Below, piece after piece: positions 5,664 to 55,027 of a stretch of 64,000 bases of DNA. The notes under the pieces are model-generated. The model ran no database searches, was not told the DNA's origin, and saw only the letters and a program-made list of their open reading frames with translations. The translations under genes and the position numbers were made by a program. The stretch spans positions 5,392 to 69,391 of the forward strand of contig JAEEHM010000063.1 in the NCBI GenBank assembly GCA_016280895.1, read 5' to 3'. The stretch comes from Bacillota bacterium (GTDB lineage Bacteria > Bacillota_I > Bacilli_A > ML615J-28 > CAG-698). Every line of letters starts with the position of its first letter. The first letter of the stretch is position 1.

Positions 5664-6749
5664 ATGCTAATAGATGGACACATTCATTATGATTACCCAG
5701 GAGATCCTAAAAAGATTCTAAGGGCATTAGAAATTACTAATGCTGACTTTGCATGTATTGAATCACAAATAGATTCTAGAAAAATCAATCAAAATATTGA
5801 TGCTTTATATGCTAAACTTGTGTGTGAAGGAAAGGTTTATGTAGATGGTGCCTTAGATGCATATTTATATTTTCATCATGATAAGATGGATATGATGCCT
5901 AAATATATTGAGAATTTAAGAAAATGTGGTATTGATGGAATTAAAATGATTGAAGGAAAACCGAGTGATCGTAAGAGATTTCCAATTCCTAATTTTGATG
6001 ATCCTTTATATGATCCAACATTTTCTTATTTAGAAAAGGAAGGTATTAATATAACTTGGCATGTCAATGATCCAGAAGAATTTTGGGATGAAGAAAAGGT
6101 TCCATTTTGGGCTAAGCGTAGTGGATGGTTCTATGGTGATGGAACATTCGCAAATAATATTGACCAATATAATCAAGTAGAAAATCTACTTAAAAAACAT
6201 CCTAATTTGAAAATTACTTTTGCACATTTTTTCTTTTTAAGTAATAATTTAAAACACTTAAGTGAATTATTTGATAAATATCCAAACATTAGTGTCGATA
6301 TTACACCAGGTATTGAACTATTTACTAATATGAGTGATAATATTCTTCAAGCAAAACAATTCTTTAATAAATATAGTGATAGAATCCTATATGGCACTGA
6401 TATTTCAATTGAGACAGCATTTACAGGTGATTTAGATGAAGAAGATGCTAAAACAAGAAAAGAATTATGCCACGCATTTTTAAGTGAAAATAAGCATACA
6501 ATAAAAGGTAATCCTAAAGGATTATTAGGTAGTGATGATATTACATTAAATTGTTTGGGCTTAAGTGAGGAAAAGATTGAAGAAATTGAATATAAAAATT
6601 TCTTAAGATTGTATCCTAAATTAAATGAAGTAAATGTGAAAGCATTGCTTGAAGAAATAAAGAAACATCGAGAAAAACTAATTGAATTAAAGCTCAATTA
6701 TAAATTTTTAGATGAATTGGAAGAAAAGATAAAAGAATATGGTAAATAA
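5664..6749 (+). CDS. Amidohydrolase-family metal-dependent TIM-barrel hydrolase
   Basis: N-terminal 'LIDGHIHYDY' metal-binding HxH motif; 361 aa. Confidence 0.55.
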   Translation: MLIDGHIHYDYPGDPKKILRALEITNADFACIESQIDSRKINQNIDALYAKLVCEGKVYVDGALDAYLYFHHDKMDMMPKYIENLRKCGIDGIKMIEGKPSDRKRFPIPNFDDPLYDPTFSYLEKEGINITWHVNDPEEFWDEEKVPFWAKRSGWFYGDGTFANNIDQYNQVENLLKKHPNLKITFAHFFFLSNNLKHLSELFDKYPNISVDITPGIELFTNMSDNILQAKQFFNKYSDRILYGTDISIETAFTGDLDEEDAKTRKELCHAFLSENKHTIKGNPKGLLGSDDITLNCLGLSEEKIEEIEYKNFLRLYPKLNEVNVKALLEEIKKHREKLIELKLNYKFLDELEEKIKEYGK

Positions 6750-8253
6750 AGAAGATGAAATAAGGATAAGAAGAAAGATTGGGCAAGTAATATTTTGTGG
6801 TTTTAATGGCTATCAAATAAGTGAAAATTTAAAGAATTTAATTGATAAATATTATTTAGGTAATATAATCTATTTTACAAGGAATTATCAAAATCCAAAG
6901 CAAATGAAACAATTGAATAAGGATATTTATAGTTTAATAGAGAATAAAACAGGCTATATTCCTTTAACTGCAATTGACCAAGAAGGTGGCAATGTAACAA
7001 GAATGATGAATGATGTTACTTTTCCGCCATCACCAATGTCATGTAGTCAATCCCATATTGAATCTGCATGCTTTGAAATTGGAAAGATAATCGGAAGAGA
7101 TATGATTATGCTAGGCCTTAATTTGAATTTAGCACCTTGCTTAGATATTAACAGTAAAGATCCATATTATGCTAATATCAGACATTATTCATCTGATCCG
7201 GATGAGGTTTGTAAATACACTCATGATTTTATTAAAGGCTTATCATATTATGGTGTTTTATCTTGTTTGAAACATTTCCCTGGTGCTGGTGAAGATGTTG
7301 TTGATACACATTTTAATGCATCTATTCTTACAAGAAGTATCAAAGAAATAGAAGAACATGAATTAATTCCATTCAAATATAATATTGATAGTCCTTGTAT
7401 AATGACAACACATACTATCTTTAAAGCAATCGATGATTTACCATCAACCTTATCATCTAAGGTAATAAAAGGCTATTTACGCGATAAAATGAATTATCAA
7501 GGTATTGTTATTACTGATGCCTTAGAGATGAAAGCAATTGATGATTATTTTGGTGCTGTGAAAGCTTCACTTATGGCTTTAAATGCTGGTGCAGATATGA
7601 TTCTATGTTGTCATGATTATCAAGTTCAAGTAGATACATTTGAATATTTATATGATTGCGTAATAAATGGTTCTTTAAAGGAAAGTACACTTGATGAAAA
7701 AATAGAAAGAATAGCAAAATATAAGAATAAGCTAAGACCATATTTGGATAAATATTTTTATAATGAAGAAGAATATCAAGTAAGTATAGCTGCAAATGAT
7801 TTTTCATATCAAGTAGTAAAAGCATCATTTCAATTAATTAAGGGAATAATGCCAAGTTTAAAGAATAATACTCTATTTTTGGCACCGGAATTATACGCAA
7901 TTAATGGTGCTGAGGATGTTTTTGATGATCGTAGTCTTCCCCAAGCATTAAACGCTAATTTTAAGAATGATGTAATTGTGTTAGATAATAAGGAAAGTAC
8001 AAAGAATAAGATATTAAATTTGTTAGATAAATATGATTCAGTCATTGCGTTTTCATATAATGTTAATATTGATAAAGTTAATGTAGATATAATCAATGAA
8101 GTGAATAATAGAAAAAACACCTTTATTATTTCATTAAAGGGAATGATGGATATCAATTTGTATGATGATTTAAGAAATTATGCTGTTCTATATGAATATA
8201 GTCCTAATTCTATAAGAGTGCTAATTGAATTGTTGAAAAGACCAATTGATTAA
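6739..8253 (+). CDS. Glycoside hydrolase family 3 beta-N-acetylhexosaminidase (NagZ-like), cytoplasmic
   Basis: GH3 N-domain motifs 'KHFPGAGEDVVDTHF' and 'ITDALEMKAI'. No signal peptide. Overlaps the upstream gene by 11 nt. Confidence 0.7.
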   Translation: MVNKEDEIRIRRKIGQVIFCGFNGYQISENLKNLIDKYYLGNIIYFTRNYQNPKQMKQLNKDIYSLIENKTGYIPLTAIDQEGGNVTRMMNDVTFPPSPMSCSQSHIESACFEIGKIIGRDMIMLGLNLNLAPCLDINSKDPYYANIRHYSSDPDEVCKYTHDFIKGLSYYGVLSCLKHFPGAGEDVVDTHFNASILTRSIKEIEEHELIPFKYNIDSPCIMTTHTIFKAIDDLPSTLSSKVIKGYLRDKMNYQGIVITDALEMKAIDDYFGAVKASLMALNAGADMILCCHDYQVQVDTFEYLYDCVINGSLKESTLDEKIERIAKYKNKLRPYLDKYFYNEEEYQVSIAANDFSYQVVKASFQLIKGIMPSLKNNTLFLAPELYAINGAEDVFDDRSLPQALNANFKNDVIVLDNKESTKNKILNLLDKYDSVIAFSYNVNIDKVNVDIINEVNNRKNTFIISLKGMMDINLYDDLRNYAVLYEYSPNSIRVLIELLKRPID

Positions 8254-11827: not shown

Positions 11828-12402
11828 AAAGAGTATTTTTAATTAGGCATGGAGAAACCATGGCTAATATCAAACATCAATATTGTGGTTCATCTGATTT
11901 GAGTTTATCAGATGAAGGAAAAGAAAAATTAAAAGACTTGATCTCTTTATATGATGATGTATCAAAGGGTTCTATCTTTATTACATCAGGGATGAAGCGA
12001 GCAAATGAATCACTTAATATACTATTTGGTGATGTTAAAAAAGAAGAATATCCAGGATTAAAAGAAATGGACTTTGGTCCATTTGAACTTAAAACATATG
12101 AAGAATTAAAAGATGATAAGGAATATCAGCTTTGGATACAAGATACTTTCAACAACAAAATAAAAGGTGGAGAAAGTTTTGCAATTCAAAGAAAAAGAGT
12201 CTTATCCGCTTATGATGAGATTATTCAAAAATACAAGAACATTGATAAAGATGTGATTATTCTTGCTCATGGTGGCACAATCTTTCACATCATTGATAAT
12301 TTATTTAAAGAGGGAAAATATGTATATGAAATTCAACCTGCATCAGGACATGCATATGTAATTGATTATACAAAAGAAAAAATATTTTACGAAAAGAGAT
12401 AA
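11824..12402 (+). CDS. cobC: Alpha-ribazole phosphatase (histidine phosphatase family)
   Basis: 'LIRHGET' catalytic RHG motif, and position in the cob operon. Confidence 0.65.
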   Translation: MKRVFLIRHGETMANIKHQYCGSSDLSLSDEGKEKLKDLISLYDDVSKGSIFITSGMKRANESLNILFGDVKKEEYPGLKEMDFGPFELKTYEELKDDKEYQLWIQDTFNNKIKGGESFAIQRKRVLSAYDEIIQKYKNIDKDVIILAHGGTIFHIIDNLFKEGKYVYEIQPASGHAYVIDYTKEKIFYEKR

Positions 12403-12409
12403 AGAACAT

Positions 12410-14194
12410 ATGAAAAAATTATTATTTTCCTTAATTATATTTATTGTTGTTTTTATGTTTGGCTGTAATAATAATAAAACATGTACAATAGATGCAGAAA
12501 ATGTTGACGTATTAGTTGGAGAAAGTTATAAACTTTCCTTAAACACAAATGTGAAAAATCCCCATTTTGTGTATGAAATAGATAATAATATCATTGAAAT
12601 AAAAGATGATGTAATCTACGCAAAAGAAATAGGAATCGCAAATGTAGATGTATCTGTGAAGAATCACGAAGGCAAAGCATCATTTGTGGTAAGAGTATGT
12701 CAAGAAGGACTTACAATATTTGGTTTACATGAACAAGTAATTTTAGAACACCAACAATTAGATTTAGTAAGATTTGGTGTTGATGAGGAAGAGCATATTA
12801 CTTGGAGAAGTAGTAATATTGATGTGGCACGTGTTTCAAATGGTGAGGTTATTCCTAATGGTTTAGGAAAAACTACTGTCACTGCAAAGACTGATATTTA
12901 TTCAGCGACATTTGAACTTGAAATTATTCGCCCAATGCCAAGTGATGTAGAAACAAAGACTGAACTTAGATTTGAAGAATCTTCAAAATATAGTATTGAA
13001 TATAATGTGTTACCAGAATATGCTTTACAAGATGTTAAAATTATTTCATCTAATGATAATTTAATTGTGAATGATGATAACACAATCCTTGCAAACAAAA
13101 AGGGTAGTGCTACATTATCTATTTCCCCTTTAAGCAATGATTCAATTGTGAAAGTAGTAAATGTTGAAATATTTGAAAATAAAGCTCCTGTATTTGAATA
13201 TACAGATGATTATCAAGAAGAATTAGAAATTAATTATAATGATAAAGAAGCACTACTAACAGGTATTAAAGCTATTGATAATGTTGATGGTGATATTACA
13301 GATAAAATCGAATTTGATAATAATCTTATTTGTACATATGGTCGTCAAGAAATAACATTAAAGGTAAAAGATAATAGTGGTAATGTTAGTACAATAAATA
13401 GAATCGTCGATGTAAAATGGAATTACCATACTAAATTTATTGGCCATAGTGGTTCATATTATGGAGTTCCTAATACTGAGGCTGCTTTCTTATATGCTGC
13501 TAAGAACTTACATTATCAAGCATTAGAGTGTGATTTACAAGTTACAAAAGATGGTGTTTATGTAACCAACCATGATTCATTTATTGGTGATTTTGTGATT
13601 AGTGAACATACATATGCTGAACTTCAAGAAATTACCTTGACACGTACCAATTCTGGTTATATTAAATCCTTAGGTCTTGATACAACAGAAAAATACGAAA
13701 GTAAGGTATGTACCTTAGAACGTTATTTAGAAATCTGCAAAACATATGGTTGTGAAGCAGTTATAGAAATAAAAGGATCATCACCTGGACTTTCTAGTTC
13801 AAGTCAAGCAGGAATGCAAAGATTAGTTGATTTTGTGAAAGAAAAAGGAATGTGGGATGACACAATCTTTTTAACATCAACTGTTGCTTGTTTAAAATGG
13901 CTTAGAAATAATGGCTATAATGATGTAAGATGTCAATATTTAGTTAGTTCATGTGAAAGCCAAGATGTATTAAATACATGTATTGAATACAATTTTGATC
14001 TTAGTACTAATGTAACATATGGTGGACCTAATAGTGATGAGTGGCTACAAAAATACCATGATGCTGGTCTTGAAATATCTGTTTGGACTTTTGATATTTA
14101 CACAAAATATGAAGTAGGACAAGCATGGATTGACAAGGGTGTTGAATATATTACCTGTGATTGGTATGTAATGGAAGAAATGAATTTAAAATAA
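12410..14194 (+). CDS. Surface lipoprotein with three Big_2 Ig-like domains, a DUF5011-like Ig domain and a C-terminal glycerophosphodiester phosphodiesterase (GDPD) domain
   Basis: Lipobox 'VFMFGC'. Big_2-like repeats. GDPD motifs 'FIGHSGSYYGVPNTEAAF...ECDLQVTKDGVYVTNHD'. Start moved to ATG 12410. Confidence 0.7.
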   Translation: MKKLLFSLIIFIVVFMFGCNNNKTCTIDAENVDVLVGESYKLSLNTNVKNPHFVYEIDNNIIEIKDDVIYAKEIGIANVDVSVKNHEGKASFVVRVCQEGLTIFGLHEQVILEHQQLDLVRFGVDEEEHITWRSSNIDVARVSNGEVIPNGLGKTTVTAKTDIYSATFELEIIRPMPSDVETKTELRFEESSKYSIEYNVLPEYALQDVKIISSNDNLIVNDDNTILANKKGSATLSISPLSNDSIVKVVNVEIFENKAPVFEYTDDYQEELEINYNDKEALLTGIKAIDNVDGDITDKIEFDNNLICTYGRQEITLKVKDNSGNVSTINRIVDVKWNYHTKFIGHSGSYYGVPNTEAAFLYAAKNLHYQALECDLQVTKDGVYVTNHDSFIGDFVISEHTYAELQEITLTRTNSGYIKSLGLDTTEKYESKVCTLERYLEICKTYGCEAVIEIKGSSPGLSSSSQAGMQRLVDFVKEKGMWDDTIFLTSTVACLKWLRNNGYNDVRCQYLVSSCESQDVLNTCIEYNFDLSTNVTYGGPNSDEWLQKYHDAGLEISVWTFDIYTKYEVGQAWIDKGVEYITCDWYVMEEMNLK

Positions 14195-17067: not shown

Positions 17068-17259
17068 TTAAGCACGTTTTACTAAACCAGAACGTAAAGC
17101 ACGTGTAGAAACATACACTTTCTTTACTTTACCATCTTCATCGATGATTCTTACTTTTTGTAAGTTGGCTTTCCAAGTTCTTCTTGTAGCCTTTAATGAG
17201 TGAGGACGGTTGTTACCAGTTGATGTACCTAATCCAGTTACATAACATTTACGAGCCAT
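17068..17259 (-). CDS. rpmB: 50S ribosomal protein L28
   Basis: '[34 protein letters not shown]' is canonical L28. AGGAGG RBS. Confidence 0.9.
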
Positions 17260-32160: not shown

Positions 32161-33576
32161 ATGAAAATATCAATAGTTGGTGGGGGAATTAGTGGTCTTG
32201 TTTGTGGAATTTATTCTTTAAAGAATAATGATGATGTTACTATTTATGAAAAGAATGATACTTTAGGTGGAATAAATCAATATAATTATTTCAATAATTA
32301 TTTTATTTATGATAAGGATATTCCTTTCTATGAAGAAATAGGAATTAAGGATTTAGCTTGTTTAAACATAAATAATGATGAAAATGATTATTTAATCAAT
32401 TATAAGGATTTATATTTATACAAAGATATCAATAAATTAGAAAAACATTTAAAAGAAAGAGATATTAATTCTTCAAAAACAATCGATTCTTTTATCAAGG
32501 ATATTCAAAGTGCATATCAATATTTAATCAACTATGATGAGCCAATTGATTTATTATCTTTCACTAAAAAAACAAAATTTATTTTGTCACGGGGAAAAAG
32601 CAATAAAATATTAAATAAGCATAATAAAGAAAATATTAGAGAATATCTTGATATGTTTAAAGATGATGATCTTAAAATCTTATTAAGATCAGTCCTTCCT
32701 TCAGATTATCCTGCTGCTTATTTATTGATTTTTATTGCATACTACCAAATGGGTAAAATCATAAAAATCAAGAATAAAAATGAAATAATAAACGCATTAC
32801 AAAATAAATACACAAGCCTTGGTGGAAAAGTAAAATACGGAACTGAAATTCTTAAATTTACATACAAAAGATCAAAGATAGTTGGTATGTGGACAAACAG
32901 TGATAAATATATTGAAACTGATGTATGTATTTGCACAAACGATCCATATAATGTGTTTAAAAAAATCTTAGAAGGAAAACATGATGATCGTAAATATACA
33001 TTAAGATATGAAGAATATAAGAAATATCCAATGTATTCATATTTATCTTTTGTGTATGAGTTGAAATCACCAATTAATTTAGCACACGATTTTATTCTTG
33101 ATATTAATAAAATGAAAATTGCTGCTAGCACTCATTCATATTTAAAGATATCTGTAAATGAGAACTTATTAAATGTAAATATAAGATTAAATAATGATGA
33201 TTATTTCTTCTTTAAAGTTATGGCTAAGAATCCAAAAGTATATGATAATGAGATTACAAATATTAGCCAAAGCCTTCAAAAAACAATCATTAGATCATTA
33301 AAGAATTTATATGATGATGAAGATTTGGATGTTAAATTATCATTAGCCTCATATCTTGATCCATTAATGATTGAGAAGAAGTTCAATCATTATCAAGGAA
33401 ATGTGAGTGGCTTTGGCATTATCCCAGGTAATGAAAGACATATCAGTGATGGTAGATTATCAGGATTAAATGCATTGTATTTAGCATCTAAACATAATGC
33501 TTGTCCTGCTCATTTGTTATCGGAAATGATAGAAGCTAAAAATGTAGTATTAAGAATGGAAAAAGACCTCAAATAA
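32161..33576 (+). CDS. FAD/NAD(P)-binding oxidoreductase (amine oxidase / phytoene desaturase-like)
   Basis: N-terminal Rossmann 'KISIVGGGISGLVCGIY...YEK'. RBS AGGAGAG. Confidence 0.55.
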   Translation: MKISIVGGGISGLVCGIYSLKNNDDVTIYEKNDTLGGINQYNYFNNYFIYDKDIPFYEEIGIKDLACLNINNDENDYLINYKDLYLYKDINKLEKHLKERDINSSKTIDSFIKDIQSAYQYLINYDEPIDLLSFTKKTKFILSRGKSNKILNKHNKENIREYLDMFKDDDLKILLRSVLPSDYPAAYLLIFIAYYQMGKIIKIKNKNEIINALQNKYTSLGGKVKYGTEILKFTYKRSKIVGMWTNSDKYIETDVCICTNDPYNVFKKILEGKHDDRKYTLRYEEYKKYPMYSYLSFVYELKSPINLAHDFILDINKMKIAASTHSYLKISVNENLLNVNIRLNNDDYFFFKVMAKNPKVYDNEITNISQSLQKTIIRSLKNLYDDEDLDVKLSLASYLDPLMIEKKFNHYQGNVSGFGIIPGNERHISDGRLSGLNALYLASKHNACPAHLLSEMIEAKNVVLRMEKDLK

Positions 33577-33592
33577 TGAGGTCTTTTTTTGT
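33561..33592. terminator. Bidirectional terminator
   Basis: aaagacctc-aaataat-gaggtcttt with a T-run; the stop codon lies in the loop. Confidence 0.75.
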
Positions 33593-33597
33593 GTCTT

Positions 33598-34395
33598 TTA
33601 TTTGATTGATGCATGATATAGCACATTATCTAATCTTACTGGTTGAAGATTTTCATCAATACCATATACTTGATTATTAAATGTGTCATCAACCATTAAG
33701 CCAGATGTTCTAAATGTACCAGTGAAATCAACTGTAAATAATGTTGTTTCTTCACTAATTACATCACTTAACATAATTGTTGCTATTACATAATCATCTT
33801 TTATTTCAAAATCAAAGATACCATTTAGATTTGCGTTCTTAAGTGCATTAGAAATTGTCATTACATCTTTATTGCACTTATATTTGAATTGTAGTGCTTT
33901 AACGCCACTTGATTTTTCAAGAATGAAATTAATCTTGTTTTGGTTTAAATCACGGATAGCTTTTATTACAGCACCATGTGAACCATCTTTATTTAAGTCT
34001 TGGTCTAATAATGCAGAATCTACTAGGTGAACAATATAATTCATGCCAAATAATTCACCATTCCATTCATAAACGATATAGATTCTTGGATTACCTGCTT
34101 TTTTAAGCTTATTTAAATCTGATTCTTCCAACATTGATTCTTCAAGTGGAACAACTCTACTTGTATTATCAGTATATGTTACTAAGAACTTAACCATATC
34201 AAGAGTAAACTCATCATATTCAAATCTTTGTTCTTGATATTCTTCAATTGCACTTATTTCATATACTCTCTTACTTGACCAATCTATTTCAGGATCATTT
34301 TTATCATCAGGTGTTTTATCCTTACCACACGCAAATAGGGAAATAGATAAGATAAGAGTGAAGATAAATATAAATATTTTCTTTAAATTATTCAT
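33598..34395 (-). CDS. Lipoprotein of unknown function
   Basis: Lipobox 'SLFACG'. AGGAGG RBS overlaps the upstream gene's stop, so the two genes are co-transcribed on the minus strand. Confidence 0.6.
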   Translation of the reverse strand: MNNLKKIFIFIFTLILSISLFACGKDKTPDDKNDPEIDWSSKRVYEISAIEEYQEQRFEYDEFTLDMVKFLVTYTDNTSRVVPLEESMLEESDLNKLKKAGNPRIYIVYEWNGELFGMNYIVHLVDSALLDQDLNKDGSHGAVIKAIRDLNQNKINFILEKSSGVKALQFKYKCNKDVMTISNALKNANLNGIFDFEIKDDYVIATIMLSDVISEETTLFTVDFTGTFRTSGLMVDDTFNNQVYGIDENLQPVRLDNVLYHASIK

Positions 34396-34404
34396 ATTTG
34401 CCTC

Positions 34405-36651
34405 CTACTTATATACAGGACGAATTACAAGATCGCCTGTGATATATTTTCCATTATCTGTATAATACAAGAAATCAGCATCACTGATATTTGGAAGTTC
34501 AATACTAGCACCAAATGGAAGTTTAGTAGTAGAAGCAATACTTCCATCCTTATTAAGGATTGTTACTGTGAATAATTTTGCTTCTGTTAATTCACTAATC
34601 TTATTACCCGCGAATTCATAAATAAGAATAGCATCACCAACATCAACACTTCCATCCTTATTTAAATCTAATAATGTTTTTTCATTATTCTTGAATTGAT
34701 ATGATGCTTGAATTGATTTAAATAATGCTTTAACATCTTCATCATTAATGCTACCATCATAATTAGCATCACCAGCAAGTAGATAAATAGTAGTCTTTTC
34801 AAATACAATATTTCCACTTTCATTTAATGCTTGAATCTTGTATGTAGAATTTAAATTAGTGCTAGCTTTATTGATTTCATATTTTTGATTAGAAGAAGAG
34901 ATTTCTTCAACTAATGTATCATCTTGATAAATCTTGTATTTCTTAACTACATCATTCTTTAATTCTTGGTTCCAAGATAATACTAATTTATCATTATTAG
35001 GACTAGCTTTGAAAGAATCAAATGTGCCATAATCACCATAAGTACCAAATGTGTAATCAGCATTTTTAACTGTTCCATCAACATAATCAATAACTAACTT
35101 ATAATTATATGTTGTATTAGGATTTAAGTTTTCGACTGTTAAGAAAGATGTACCATATTTTGCAGGATATTCAACTGCAATAATATTGTTGCTATCATCA
35201 TATAATCTAATCTTACTAATGTATTCAGCATATGCTGGAGAAAAGTCAATATAAGTTTTTGTACCATTATTTGATGCTTTTAAAGTATCAAGAATAGAAT
35301 CTTTCTTATCTGCCCAATTTACTTGACGTTTTGCTTTTATTTCATAAGTGTCTTTAACATCACCATTTGTGTCAAATAATTCACCCTTAATTCCATTTGG
35401 AGTAACTGTATATCTTGTACAACCACTATAATTAGCAAGTCTATTTGGATCATCAGCTACATCATCAATACGAATTGCGTAGTATTCAGGATCTTTACGA
35501 TCAGTAATAGTACGATATCTATCACCAATTTGTGGACAACCTACATACATTGTACCTTGATTATCTTCATCATAGATTTTTCCTTCATAGATGAATTTAC
35601 TACGATAATATACATGGTGGTCACCAGCTAAAGCTAAATCTACACCATATCTATCAAATAATTGATACCATTGATTATAGTTTGAAGTATATGGACCAGA
35701 ATGTTCACCAGTTAATGCGTTCATCCAAGGATAGTGCTCCATAACGATTAAATATTGGAATCTACCTTCGTTTTCACTAACTATTTTTCCAAACCATTCT
35801 TTTTGAGCTGCTAAAGTATGAGAATAACCAGCAGCAAGTGAGTCCAACATTACAAACATAACACTGTTGTAAATGAACCAATAAGAACTATCTAGTGGAT
35901 TTCCAATACCATTATCTGGATGTGTAAATACTGATTCAAAGAATCTGTTGTCAATATTTACACTTGAATCTGGATATTGATTATGACTACCATAATAGTC
36001 ATGGTTACCAGTAGTAGAAGCAAATACCTTACTTGAGAAGAAATTAATCTTTGAGTTCATAACTTGATAATTATCATATGAACCACCATAACTTACGTTA
36101 TCACCACTTGATACAACTAAGTCAAAATTGAAATTTGCTTTTTCTAATTGACTAACAAACTGATTTACATATGTATAACGAGTTTGACAAGAATCAACCT
36201 TATAAGTATGGAAATCACCAATCCATAAGAAGTTAAAGTTTCCAGCAGTACCTGCTGTCTTACAAGTATAAGCCTTTGATGTTGTAGTGCCACACTTAAT
36301 ACGATAACGATATCTTGTATCAGGGATTAAATCTTTTATTGATACTTTAAATTCATAAAATGATATTTTATCATATTCGTAAGAAGTATTATCATAAACA
36401 CCACTTGCTTTTATTTCAATTGCGTTTTTGAAGGTAGTATCAGAATCTAATGTCCAATAAAGAGTACCTTCTGGATAATTACTATGCCATGCTACCATTA
36501 ATTCAGTAGAAGCATCTTCGCCAGCCCATGTCCATACCATTTCCACAGGAGCAATAGCTGCATTGACCTTCGCACTAATAGTAATTAGAAATGCAATTAA
36601 AATGAATGAAAGATATATAAAGATTTTCTTTATATATGTAATTTTTTTCAT
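34405..36651 (-). CDS. Secreted purple-acid-phosphatase-like metallophosphoesterase with FN3-like domains and a dockerin-like (type I) Ca-binding module
   Basis: Signal peptide. PAP motifs 'IGDFH', 'SGDNVSYGG', 'GNHDYYG', 'VMEHYP', 'GDHHVYY'. Dockerin duplicate 'GDANYDGSINDEDVKALF' / 'DLNKDGSVDVGDAILI'. Confidence 0.75.
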   Translation of the reverse strand: MKKITYIKKIFIYLSFILIAFLITISAKVNAAIAPVEMVWTWAGEDASTELMVAWHSNYPEGTLYWTLDSDTTFKNAIEIKASGVYDNTSYEYDKISFYEFKVSIKDLIPDTRYRYRIKCGTTTSKAYTCKTAGTAGNFNFLWIGDFHTYKVDSCQTRYTYVNQFVSQLEKANFNFDLVVSSGDNVSYGGSYDNYQVMNSKINFFSSKVFASTTGNHDYYGSHNQYPDSSVNIDNRFFESVFTHPDNGIGNPLDSSYWFIYNSVMFVMLDSLAAGYSHTLAAQKEWFGKIVSENEGRFQYLIVMEHYPWMNALTGEHSGPYTSNYNQWYQLFDRYGVDLALAGDHHVYYRSKFIYEGKIYDEDNQGTMYVGCPQIGDRYRTITDRKDPEYYAIRIDDVADDPNRLANYSGCTRYTVTPNGIKGELFDTNGDVKDTYEIKAKRQVNWADKKDSILDTLKASNNGTKTYIDFSPAYAEYISKIRLYDDSNNIIAVEYPAKYGTSFLTVENLNPNTTYNYKLVIDYVDGTVKNADYTFGTYGDYGTFDSFKASPNNDKLVLSWNQELKNDVVKKYKIYQDDTLVEEISSSNQKYEINKASTNLNSTYKIQALNESGNIVFEKTTIYLLAGDANYDGSINDEDVKALFKSIQASYQFKNNEKTLLDLNKDGSVDVGDAILIYEFAGNKISELTEAKLFTVTILNKDGSIASTTKLPFGASIELPNISDADFLYYTDNGKYITGDLVIRPVYK

Positions 36652-36679
36652 ATATTTATCACTTCTCCTTTATGTATTT

Positions 36680-36708
36680 ATTATATAATAAGTAAAGAAA
36701 AAATGCAA
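36680..36708 (-). promoter_or_regulatory. Minus-strand promoter for the PAP-like operon
   Basis: On the minus strand: TTGCAT (plus 36703-08), 17-nt spacer, TATAAT (plus 36680-85). The -35 is embedded in the inverted repeat TGCAAtcgtTTGCA (36704-36717). Confidence 0.4.
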
Positions 36709-36762
36709 TCGTTTGCAGAACTTTATCTAAAATAATTCCTATATACGAACAATTTTATATAA

Positions 36763-36791
36763 TTGACTAATATTAACTTAAGTGCTATAAT
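36763..36791 (+). promoter_or_regulatory. Sigma-A promoter for NUDIX-pepF
   Basis: TTGACT (36763-68), 17-nt spacer, TGcTATAAT (36783-91). ATG at 36810. Confidence 0.6.
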
Positions 36792-36809
36792 AAACAAGAA
36801 GGTTAAAAT

Positions 36810-37379
36810 ATGGAAGAATATTGGGATGTCTATGATATTAATAGACAAAAAACAGGTAAAATAATTAAAAGAGGCCAAAGATTAAATGATGATGAATATC
36901 ATCTCTTTGTTCAGGTGTGGTTAATAAATAAAGAAGGACTATTCTTATCACAAGAAAGGTCTGAGAATATTTCTTGGCCCTTAATGTGGTGCGCTAATGG
37001 TGGCAATGCGAAAATGGGAGAAGATGCTTACACCTGTGCAAGAAGAGAGGTATTAGAAGAATTAAAGATTGATATTAATGGTCTTGATGGCTTTATGTTT
37101 GATAGTAGTACATATTTTGAAGATAATCAAAATTATTTCTGTGATTCTTTTGTGTATGTAATAGATAAAGATATTAAGGATATTGATTATCAAAAAGAAG
37201 AAATTAAGTCCTTGAAATATATGAATATGAAAGAAATAAAGGATTTAATGAAAGAGAAAATCTTCTTTACCTATGAAGAAGATTATCTTGATTTATTAGA
37301 AAGAATTGCAAGTGATGTAAGGAATAATAAATTTAATAAAAATAATTATAAGAAAGAAGGCAATAAAAATGAAATTTGA
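36810..37379 (+). CDS. NUDIX hydrolase
   Basis: Nudix box 'GGNAKMGEDAYTCARREVLEELKI'. Confidence 0.7.
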   Translation: MEEYWDVYDINRQKTGKIIKRGQRLNDDEYHLFVQVWLINKEGLFLSQERSENISWPLMWCANGGNAKMGEDAYTCARREVLEELKIDINGLDGFMFDSSTYFEDNQNYFCDSFVYVIDKDIKDIDYQKEEIKSLKYMNMKEIKDLMKEKIFFTYEEDYLDLLERIASDVRNNKFNKNNYKKEGNKNEI

Positions 37380-53419: not shown

Positions 53420-53450
53420 CAAAAGCACCTCATTTGAGGTGCTTTATTCT
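53420..53450. terminator. Bidirectional terminator
   Basis: aaagcacctc-attt-gaggtgcttt followed by ATT; convergent genes. Confidence 0.8.
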
Positions 53451-55027
53451 TATAATAAGCCAGATAATGAAATCTTAATATAGCCCTTTGTTGAAGAAGA
53501 ATACAAACCAACTTCTGTAGAAGATGATTTTTCCACTAAAGCATTAAATACAGGACTATCTGTAAGTAATTTAGTAAAATTGAAATTGATTTTCTTATTA
53601 ATACTATCTGCTCCAATCCATTCTTCATCCTTTAGTGCTTCATTTAAGAAATTAAGAATTGCGCTTATTTGATCATCCTTTAAATTGATTTCACCAAGTA
53701 CTACTGATGTAACATCAGTAGATATTTGTAGTCCATCAGAACCACTTGCGTTTGCGACACATTTTAAGGCTATTTGATAACCATTAATATTGACAGTGAT
53801 GATGATTTCTAATTTATCATCACTTATTTTAGCATATATTGATTCTAAATATAAATATGATATTTTATGCTTATCATTTTCAATACGTGAGAAAGCATAA
53901 GAAATACCAATAGCACCAGTAGAGAATAAGATGTTTGTGAAATCATCTTCATAAATCTTAATATCTAAGCTTGGAGATAATAAATCATGAATGCTTGGGC
54001 TTTGTTCAGAAATGATTTCCAACATTGATTTTTGTGGTACTTCTAATATACCATCATATGTTGTGTTAGAATAAATACCAATTGAAGATAAATTTAATTC
54101 TTTGATGAAGTCATATTTTCCTTCTTCATCTTTTTTACTTACATTTTTCCATCCTCTTACTAAATAATCAAAAGTAAGTCCACAATTTTTATAATCAATA
54201 ATATTATTATCAAGTAATGATTCAACATCAGTTTTTACTTTATCATAATCAAATGAATAAGGAATATCATAAAAAGTACTTGAATCATAAGCTAATTTTT
54301 CTAAGTGAGCATCAAGACCTAATTCATGGTTAGAAGATATGATTTTAATTAATTCATTTTCAAAGATAATATCAACTAAGCATGCATATAAATCCTTATT
54401 TGGATCATCTTTCATCATATTCAAGACTGTTTCAGATGCTTGGTCTTTGTTGATGCTGACTTTTAAGTTTTGTAAATCAAGGTCAATAATGATTCCTTTT
54501 TTATCTAAATCTTCTTTAATATCATCTTCATTTAATACACCTTTAGCAAGAGTAGATATTAAGCCTCTTTTCGCATTTAATTTACCTACGCTTGCGTTAT
54601 TGATTTGTAGGTAAATATTATCACCATCATCTTTGAATGTGAAACCACCTTTTAAAGAAGATGGGAAGCCTAAGACCTTGAAATGAATTGATGCTTGCAT
54701 ATTTGCGTTTTCATCTATTTCAAGATTAGCACCTCTAATTGTCATTTTATCTTTAAATGTTTCATTTAAAGTGTTTGTAAGTGCTTGAAGTAAATAATTG
54801 ATCTCGTCTTCACTTAATGATGCATCCACAATTTTAGTTTCTTTTGTGTCTTTTAAAGCGTTTGACGCAATAGAATTTACTTCATAATTTAAATCATTAG
54901 AGTATTCTTTGTATTTGTTGTCCTTATAAGAATTATCATAAATCAATGCAACTACAATACCTAAGATTAATAAAATTATTAAAATAATTATCCCAATTAC
55001 AATAAATAATCTTTTAAAAAGCTTCAT
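53450..55027 (-). CDS. N-terminally membrane-anchored extracytoplasmic protein of unknown function (525 aa)
   Basis: 'LFIVIGIIILIILLILGIVVALI' signal-anchor, then a hydrophilic domain. No recognisable catalytic motifs. Confidence 0.5.
   Translation of the reverse strand: MKLFKRLFIVIGIIILIILLILGIVVALIYDNSYKDNKYKEYSNDLNYEVNSIASNALKDTKETKIVDASLSEDEINYLLQALTNTLNETFKDKMTIRGANLEIDENANMQASIHFKVLGFPSSLKGGFTFKDDGDNIYLQINNASVGKLNAKRGLISTLAKGVLNEDDIKEDLDKKGIIIDLDLQNLKVSINKDQASETVLNMMKDDPNKDLYACLVDIIFENELIKIISSNHELGLDAHLEKLAYDSSTFYDIPYSFDYDKVKTDVESLLDNNIIDYKNCGLTFDYLVRGWKNVSKKDEEGKYDFIKELNLSSIGIYSNTTYDGILEVPQKSMLEIISEQSPSIHDLLSPSLDIKIYEDDFTNILFSTGAIGISYAFSRIENDKHKISYLYLESIYAKISDDKLEIIITVNINGYQIALKCVANASGSDGLQISTDVTSVVLGEINLKDDQISAILNFLNEALKDEEWIGADSINKKINFNFTKLLTDSPVFNALVEKSSSTEVGLYSSSTKGYIKISLSGLL

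Follow-up and report, generated by a model that had tools for sequence, protein, structure and literature searches.

Cohesin-dockerin pairs owe most of their renown to holding cellulosomes together; noncellulosomal cohesins and dockerins are also known to be widespread, and the principle described here is no surprise. To our knowledge, most predicted noncellulosomal modules have neither a known partner nor a known function. In Clostridium perfringens, both modules are borne by secreted glycosidases and form enzyme-enzyme complexes, while we know of no cargo assigned to the cohesin and dockerin modules of Archaeoglobus fulgidus. Adjacent genes of Cellulosilyticum lentocellum encode one cohesin protein (ClcC) and one dockerin enzyme (ClcD), and experiments have demonstrated that the two proteins heterodimerize (PMC13487519). 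The present analysis concerns two adjacent genes in a 64-kb stretch of AT-rich chromosomal DNA (GC content, ~28%) from an uncultured rumen or gut bacterium of the Bacilli (Bacillota; contig JAEEHM010000063.1), termed the window. One gene encodes a purple acid phosphatase (PAP)-like enzyme with a dockerin, and the other encodes a predicted lipoprotein with a cohesin-like module.

The analysis indicated that these genes probably specify a dedicated, minimal, noncellulosomal, one-to-one, lipid-anchored cohesin-dockerin pair by which a phosphoesterase is presented at the surface of the cell. The survey for cohesins and dockerins covered the 64 kb of this genome and ~20-kb pieces of related genomes. 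Within the window itself, a single dockerin and a single cohesin-like module were found.

RESULTS

Operon structure and dockerin module

Both open reading frames (ORFs) lie on the minus strand and are flanked by plus-strand genes (Table 1). The junction between them reads ...AAG TAG GAGG CAAAT ATG, with both genes in frame and an intergenic gap of 9 nucleotides (nt), such that the PAP stop codon shares bases with the Shine-Dalgarno sequence that precedes the lipoprotein gene. The reading confirmed the overlap of stop codon and ribosome-binding site (RBS) reported in the initial annotation of the locus. The TAGGAGG overlap was also present in related loci L004, L006, L008, and L009 and is usually kept. 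The terminator-like hairpin found after the lipoprotein gene is the sole site of this type within positions 33300 to 37000. The overlap of stop codon and Shine-Dalgarno sequence and the presence of this hairpin after the second gene mark the pair as a two-gene operon, and the overlap also makes it probable that the two genes are translationally coupled. A promoter scan of the region upstream of the PAP gene was at chance level (28 sites versus 28.1 expected); a TTGCAT-17-TATAAT candidate picked out by eye at positions 36708 to 36680 is recorded here without being claimed as a promoter.

The Pfam family Dockerin_1 (PF00404) matched residues 626 to 676 of the enzyme with a score of 26.3 bits, above the gathering cutoff of 22.9, and thereby bore out the type I dockerin repeats proposed in the initial annotation. 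That annotation had counted the lack of any match to a dockerin hidden Markov model (HMM) and of any cohesin as evidence against its reading; here, a dockerin match and a cohesin-like domain were both detected. A single-sequence search of the PDB with the enzyme matched only dockerins of Clostridium thermocellum Xyn Y and the glycoside hydrolase (GH) GH48 (2ccl_B, E = 1.3e-4; also 1ohz_B and 2y3n_B), and a profile built from 40 enzyme homologues (A2) matched PDB dockerins with E values of 5e-5 to 6e-4. The two repeats, DANYDGSINDED and DLNKDGSVDVGD, are tandem units of ~22 residues in which a 12-residue Ca-binding loop precedes a helix, the Ca ligands at loop positions 1, 3, 5, 9, and 12 being D-N-D-N-D in one repeat and D-N-D-D-D in the other. 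Helices were modeled by AlphaFold2 (AF2) at residues 637 to 648, 655 to 661 (the linker), and 671 to 681. The double Ca loop was kept in all full-length orthologues (28/28), and across the window and related loci examined, this motif and the dockerin HMM were found only in PAP orthologues. The repeats differ at loop positions 10 and 11 (DE versus VG), an asymmetry in the sequence that suggests a single binding mode.

The lipoprotein and its cohesin-like module

The N terminus of the 265-amino-acid (aa) protein contains a lipobox, MNNLKKIFIFIFTLILSISLFA-C23, and the Cys at this position was kept by every one of the 25 sequences compared; the equivalent motif reads LAGC, LFGC, or LVGC in a second lineage of relatives (lineage 2; see below). 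These features match those of a bacterial lipoprotein, as which the protein is predicted here. All 25 homologues came from metagenome-assembled genomes of uncultured "Bacilli bacterium," mostly from the rumen. No Pfam or NCBIfam family was found for the window lipoprotein, and weak Big_3 matches were present in 5 of the 25 family members. The AF2 model (predicted local distance difference test [pLDDT] of 86.5) contains an Ig-like domain (residues 44 to 125) and a beta-sandwich (residues 142 to 262), both with pLDDT values above 90. Searches of the PDB by sequence, using either the single protein or a family profile, yielded no cohesin and only weak matches to signal peptides and to the Ig-like structure 2l7y; hence, structural and profile-profile methods were needed. 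Immediately ahead of the beta-sandwich, residues 131 to 141 (positions 33973 to 34005) form a dockerin- or EF-hand-like loop, DQDLNKDGSHG, in which D131, L134, and N135 are invariant in the lineage of the window (lineage 1) and absent from lineage 2 relatives. As the 12th, acidic ligand is missing, Ca binding by this loop is uncertain.

Foldseek comparison of the lipoprotein model with the PDB returned cohesins as 42 of the top 50 matches. The best was 6kgc_A, CohA2 of Clostridium acetobutylicum (E = 2.7e-5; TM score normalized to the target, 0.60, with a maximum of 0.62 among the matches), and others included the noncellulosomal A. fulgidus cohesin 2xdh as well as OlpC, OlpA, CipA, ScaB, and ScaC. 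The modeled domain (residues 142 to 262) thus superposes on solved cohesins and is predicted to have the flattened beta-sandwich (jelly-roll) fold of ~140 residues typical of them. In a Pfam scan of the family, Cohesin (PF00963) was the most frequent hit, being detected in 11 of 25 members at 13 to 22 bits (cutoff, 24.1; best E value, 2.1e-4). These subthreshold matches all fell in one register, with residues ~142 to 215 aligned to profile positions 21 to 100. A distant member, P0088, scored 28.4 bits and exceeded the cutoff; the window lipoprotein is the most diverged member of the family.

A profile of the cohesin-like domain (A3), run with word filters switched off on a set of 1.84 billion representative proteins, matched only 21 of them. 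Next after the lipoprotein family itself came P0090 (1,005 aa, with seven Pfam cohesins and a dockerin; E = 8e-5) and P0094 (734 aa, with four cohesins; E = 6.7e-4), and in both proteins the match lay within cohesin modules. Alignment by hhalign of A3 with verified cohesins (CipA Coh2, Coh7, and Coh9 and the modules of P0090 and P0094) gave a probability of 75.8% and an E value of 2.3e-5 over 76 columns, in register, with GVKALQFKY placed opposite GIANCDFVF. In the reverse search, a canonical-cohesin HMM was run against the full set of six-frame ORFs from the window and from 21 related loci, and its matches were exclusively lipoprotein orthologues. Taken together, these analyses supported the C-terminal half of the lipoprotein being a diverged cohesin-fold domain. 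One other window ORF (positions 6733 to 8250), with a weak match to a cohesin-family HMM (E = 0.05), was dismissed as a GH3 enzyme.

Linkage of the two genes among relatives

In each of the nine related loci with enough upstream DNA (L001 to L004, L006 to L009, and L021), the gene just upstream of that for the lipoprotein was the dockerin-PAP gene. This adjacency persisted down to 38 to 46% identity and was seen both in syntenic neighborhoods (NUDIX ... NAD-binding oxidoreductase) and in nonsyntenic ones (YibE_F ...), and every PAP of the nine linked loci retained its dockerin. Both families are small, with 21 clusters of the cohesin type and ~30 dockerin-PAPs, and have the same taxonomic range. 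The dockerin-less PAP relatives P0058 and P0063 (Treponema) had no cohesin-lipoprotein neighbor.

A different arrangement was observed in lineage 2 (P0045 to P0056), whose enzymes have a canonical Flg_new tail and read VNFADATI instead of VD(I/V)GDAIL in helix 3 of the dockerin. No lipoprotein gene adjoins the PAP gene in this lineage; a lipoprotein of the same architecture is encoded ~9.5 to 10 kb upstream on the opposite strand, beside the same MatE/ABC genes (as read from P0045, P0056, and P0088). Giant ORFs (>3,300 and >3,800 aa, extending past the ends of the loci) for which no Pfam domain is recorded were present at positions 17096 to 22316 of L014 and 19093 to 22304 of L020, a few kilobases from lineage 2 dockerin-PAP genes, and the portion covered had no cohesin signal with either HMM.

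Several observations weigh against a dedicated pair. The lineage 2 genes are not cotranscribed, and other cohesins or dockerins may be encoded elsewhere in the genome. A word-indexed search with a dockerin profile (A4) returned five tiny EF-hand- or dockerin-like proteins and did not recover the PAPs themselves, making it uninformative on other cargoes. As regards the cohesin, the TM scores of the structural matches were moderate (~0.5 to 0.6) and the identities were 10 to 18%, the window lipoprotein had no Pfam Cohesin match at an E value of ≤1 and was not matched by the canonical-cohesin HMM, and A3 also picked up Ig-like repeat proteins (Big_1 and HYR) at similar E values.

One explanation would be that both modules are real without being mutual partners, the dockerin binding to another cohesin on a scaffoldin or wall anchor and the lipoprotein cohesin binding to another dockerin or doing other work, for example capturing substrate or assisting in the maturation of enzymes. 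The extent of the DNA inspected, the separation of the lineage 2 genes by ~10 kb on opposite strands, and the giant, unannotated, surface-type ORFs close to the lineage 2 PAP genes are in keeping with this explanation. Set against these are the strict adjacency and conserved stop/RBS overlap across the nine lineage 1 loci, whose neighborhoods differ, the lack of any further dockerin or cohesin signal in the sequences examined, and the similarly small size and common taxonomic range of the two families; hence, separate partners were considered unlikely.

Still less likely is that the lipoprotein domain is a generic Ig- or carbohydrate-binding module (CBM)-like beta-sandwich resembling cohesins by convergence of fold, that the dockerin repeats are a structural Ca2+ module, and that the lipoprotein is an unrelated, cotranscribed surface protein. 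The missing Pfam match of the window lipoprotein, the modest probability and short span of the hhalign alignment, the Big_1 and HYR repeat proteins, and the presence of Als adhesins among the Foldseek matches could all be accommodated in this way. The Als structures, however, superposed with a root mean square deviation of ~13 Å, while cohesins dominated the top matches; the PF00963 matches shared one register, with one member above the curated cutoff, and the canonical-cohesin HMM was specific to the lipoprotein family in the DNA examined. Chance is also hard to credit for a cohesin-like domain occurring beside the only dockerin of the region in two lineages. The enzyme and the lipoprotein are, therefore, still best regarded as probable partners, and the idea in the initial annotation of the lipoprotein as a possible partner or anchor is strengthened by the cohesin fold of its C-terminal half and its co-occurrence with the dockerin enzyme in both lineages.

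Domain layout and PAP-like core of the enzyme

Pfam searches of the 748-aa protein detected Pur_ac_phosph_N (PF16656; residues 40 to 132, 39 bits against a cutoff of 30) and Metallophos (PF00149; residues 140 to 348, 53.7 bits), together with an fn3 match (residues 551 to 613) that, at 23.7 bits, fell just below its cutoff of 25. NCBIfam gave nothing useful for either protein. The AF2 model of the enzyme had a pLDDT of 88.5 and a predicted TM score of 0.78. Its best Foldseek matches were plant PAPs (4dsy; E = 4e-23, TM score of 0.72), and the A2 profile matched kidney-bean PAP with an E value of 3.9e-27.

The initial annotation had described a PAP-like enzyme with a signal peptide, five motifs, and a further domain after the dockerin. 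The PAP fold was upheld by the profile and structural matches, and all five motifs were found (GDFH, GDNVSY, GNHD, VMEH, and GDHHVY, containing GD146FH148, GD184NVSY188, GN216H217D, VMEH306, and GD344HH346). A canonical PAP has seven invariant ligands in GDxG, GDxxY, GNH(D/E), VxxH, and GHxH; six of the seven were kept (D146, D184, Y188, N216, H306, and H346), the first His of GHxH being replaced by Asp344, and the strict ligand set was thus incomplete. D146, D184, N216, H306, and H346 were invariant across the 40 homologues, and Tyr188 was present in 30 of them. Motif V (residues 344 to 346, positions 35614 to 35622) reads GDxH rather than GHxH, with Asp in 33/40 homologues; motif I reads GDFH, with the histidine of a generic DxH kept in 34/40; and a one-residue insertion precedes the Tyr of motif II. 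For an enzyme of the PAP fold, a GDxH motif V combined with a DxH motif I makes up an unusual set of ligands. Due to Asp344, the GDFH motif, and the insertion before Tyr, the enzyme is classed as PAP-like and not as a canonical PAP, and given the His-to-Asp change in motif V, it may or may not be a true purple (Fe-Tyr) PAP.

The ~60-aa tail after the dockerin, which corresponds to the further domain of the initial annotation, had no Pfam match in the window protein itself. It aligned with the PF09479 (Flg_new) domains of the distant homologues P0045 to P0056, including their GYTFxGW motif, and its beta strands were modeled with a pLDDT of ~90. At the N terminus, the predicted signal peptide was recovered as a hydrophobic helix (residues 6 to 26 in the AF2 model); the helix is followed in the model by a low-confidence segment (residues 27 to 32) and in the sequence by AKVNA/A, a likely signal peptidase I site. 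It is very improbable that the long hydrophobic helix is instead an uncleaved signal anchor, with the cohesin-dockerin contact serving to regulate, orient, or oligomerize the enzyme rather than to anchor it, since an A-x-A-type site (VNA/A) directly after the helix and then disorder are the typical layout of a secreted substrate of Sec and signal peptidase I and a dockerin would be redundant on a protein already anchored.

TABLE 1 Positions of the features of the enzyme and lipoprotein genes in the window
Feature	Positions	Strand	Basis
Dockerin-PAP gene, 748 aa	34405..36651	-	ORF; Pfam domains; AF2 model; plant PAPs as top Foldseek matches
Predicted signal peptide, residues 1-31: hydrophobic helix 6-26, then AKVNA/A	36559..36651	-	Sequence read; AF2
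PAP N-terminal beta-sandwich, residues 36-132	36256..36546	-	PF16656; alignment with kidney-bean PAP residues 35-130
Binuclear metallophosphoesterase catalytic domain, residues 138-440	35332..36240	-	PF00149; ligand conservation; PAP fold
Two fn3-like beta-sandwich spacers, residues ~447-540 and 541-622	34786..35313	-	Pfam fn3; AF2 strands; profile match to fn3 module of NagJ (2w1n)
Type I dockerin, residues 624-684, two Ca-binding loop-and-helix repeats	34600..34782	-	PF00404; PDB dockerins; AF2 helices
C-terminal small beta domain, residues 690-748, degenerate Flg_new/Listeria-Bacteroides-repeat-like	34408..34584	-	Homologous columns; AF2
Operon junction: TAG stop (34405-34407) overlapping AGGAGG RBS, 5-nt spacer, lipoprotein ATG	34396..34407	-	Sequence read
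Lipoprotein gene, 265 aa, Ig-like spacer and cohesin-like module	33598..34395	-	ORF; 26 homologues; AF2
Predicted lipoprotein signal peptide and lipobox, residues 1-23, LFA-C23	34327..34395	-	Cys23 conservation
Ig-like (Big_3-like) spacer, residues 44-125	34021..34266	-	AF2; weak Big_3 matches; weak 2l7y match
Diverged cohesin-like module, residues 142-262	33610..33972	-	Foldseek; PF00963 in members; profile search; hhalign; reverse HMM
Terminator-like hairpin 3' of lipoprotein gene, shared with convergent gene 32161-33576 (+)	33556..33592	.	Terminator scan; sequence read

Genomic setting

The window contains housekeeping genes, including those for RecG, PriA, UvrB, RecD2, and FakA. Its cumulative GC skew climbs steadily over positions 1 to 64000, which fits with nearly all genes being on the plus (leading) strand. 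Among the few minus-strand genes is one (positions 53450 to 55027) whose 525-aa product has a transmembrane segment at its N terminus and matches no Pfam family. Scanning the entire 64 kb for RNA features revealed neither a tRNA gene nor any Rfam family at gathering score.

A NUDIX hydrolase gene (positions 36810 to 37379, plus strand) lies divergently upstream of the PAP gene, an arrangement kept in L004, L006, and L021 and not in L001; a functional link of the PAP to nucleotide-derived substrates is a possible, unsupported reading of this placement. The plus strand also encodes, at positions 12362 to 14194, a protein of 610 aa that combines a GDPD (glycerophosphodiester phosphodiesterase) domain with a beta domain at its N terminus and may be a second extracytoplasmic phosphoester-scavenging enzyme within the 64 kb.

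DISCUSSION

The proposed mechanism joins computed findings (domain identities, folds, operon structure, and co-occurrence) with inferred elements, namely, that the proteins are exported and the lipoprotein is lipidated, that the two bind each other, and in what ratio, on which substrate, and to what physiological end they do so. The two genes would be transcribed together. The enzyme would be exported by Sec and its signal peptide cleaved off, while the lipoprotein would be exported, lipidated at Cys23, and kept in the outer leaflet of the cytoplasmic membrane, where a short disordered linker and the Ig-like spacer would hold its single cohesin away from the membrane. The Ca2+-loaded type I dockerin of the enzyme would then dock one-to-one onto this cohesin, such that the binuclear-metal PAP-fold phosphoesterase would be held at the surface and pushed outward by its two fn3-like spacers. 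Phosphate esters, with nucleotides, sugar phosphates, phytate-type compounds, and phosphodiesters as candidates, would be hydrolyzed there, and the products would therefore be set free beside the transporters of the cell itself.

A more specific version of this proposal is also favored, if with somewhat less assurance: the genes would form a self-contained cassette of uncultured rumen and gut Bacilli, in which a lipid-anchored single cohesin too diverged for the domain databases has coevolved one-to-one with the dockerin of a PAP-like enzyme, in two lineage-specific interface variants. The variants proposed are the two sequences of dockerin helix 3 given above.

Partner, cargo, and anchor are all legible in one two-gene operon, which makes this an unusually complete example of the noncellulosomal use of cohesins and dockerins and, hence, a directly testable case of a phosphate-ester hydrolase displayed on the membrane of a noncellulolytic gut bacterium. 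If true, the proposal would extend cohesin-dockerin biology to membrane-tethered scavenging of phosphate as a nutrient. Annotated domains are lacking in the window lipoprotein and in most of its homologues, and cohesin systems are possibly undercounted because diverged cohesins escape Pfam. The small, apparently dedicated pairs of the two lineages could also serve as orthogonal parts for protein assembly.

A search of the full-text literature yielded no paper that connects dockerins with purple acid phosphatases or metallophosphoesterases in the sense meant here and no description of lipoprotein-borne cohesins of this kind. A cellulosome comprises a scaffoldin with at least two cohesins, a CBM, and dockerin-bearing glycoside hydrolases; here, a single cohesin was found, there was no CBM, and the only dockerin protein in the window and loci examined was a phosphoesterase. 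The pair is not a cellulosome.

Noncellulosomal modules were among the structural matches of the pair: the A. fulgidus cohesin (2xdh) and the cohesins of the C. perfringens GH84 and GH33 toxin complexes (2jh2, 2vo8, and 2w1n) resemble the present case in placing cohesin-dockerin interactions outside plant cell wall degradation, and neither is a lipoprotein-phosphatase operon. With the plant PAPs (kidney bean, 1kbp and 4dsy; sweet potato, 1xzw; lupin PPD1, 3zk4; wheat phytase, 6git), the enzyme shares the N-terminal beta-sandwich and binuclear metallophosphoesterase core at ~16 to 18% identity, as well as the Asp, Asp, Tyr, Asn, His, and His ligands; unlike them, it has a C-terminal extension of ~300 aa composed of the two fn3-like domains, the dockerin, and the Flg_new-like tail.

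The type I cohesins and dockerins of C. thermocellum were among the best structural and sequence matches of the pair. OlpA and OlpC (3ul4 and 4dh2) are single-cohesin surface anchors able to hold one enzyme on the cell, as proposed here, and in CipA-Xyn10B (1ohz and 2ccl) the enzyme likewise bears a dockerin with two Ca-binding repeats in its C-terminal region. In those pairs, the anchor consists of surface-layer homology repeats and the cargo is a glycoside hydrolase, whereas here the anchor would be a lipid-modified Cys and the cargo is a phosphoesterase, with no scaffoldin or CBM, a dedicated operon, and a far more diverged cohesin that lies below Pfam detection in the window protein. In C. 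lentocellum, the CBM of ClcC and the GH5 cellulase ClcD direct that heterodimer to cellulose (PMC13487519), while at this locus the adjacent genes combine a lipoprotein cohesin with a PAP-like phosphoesterase.

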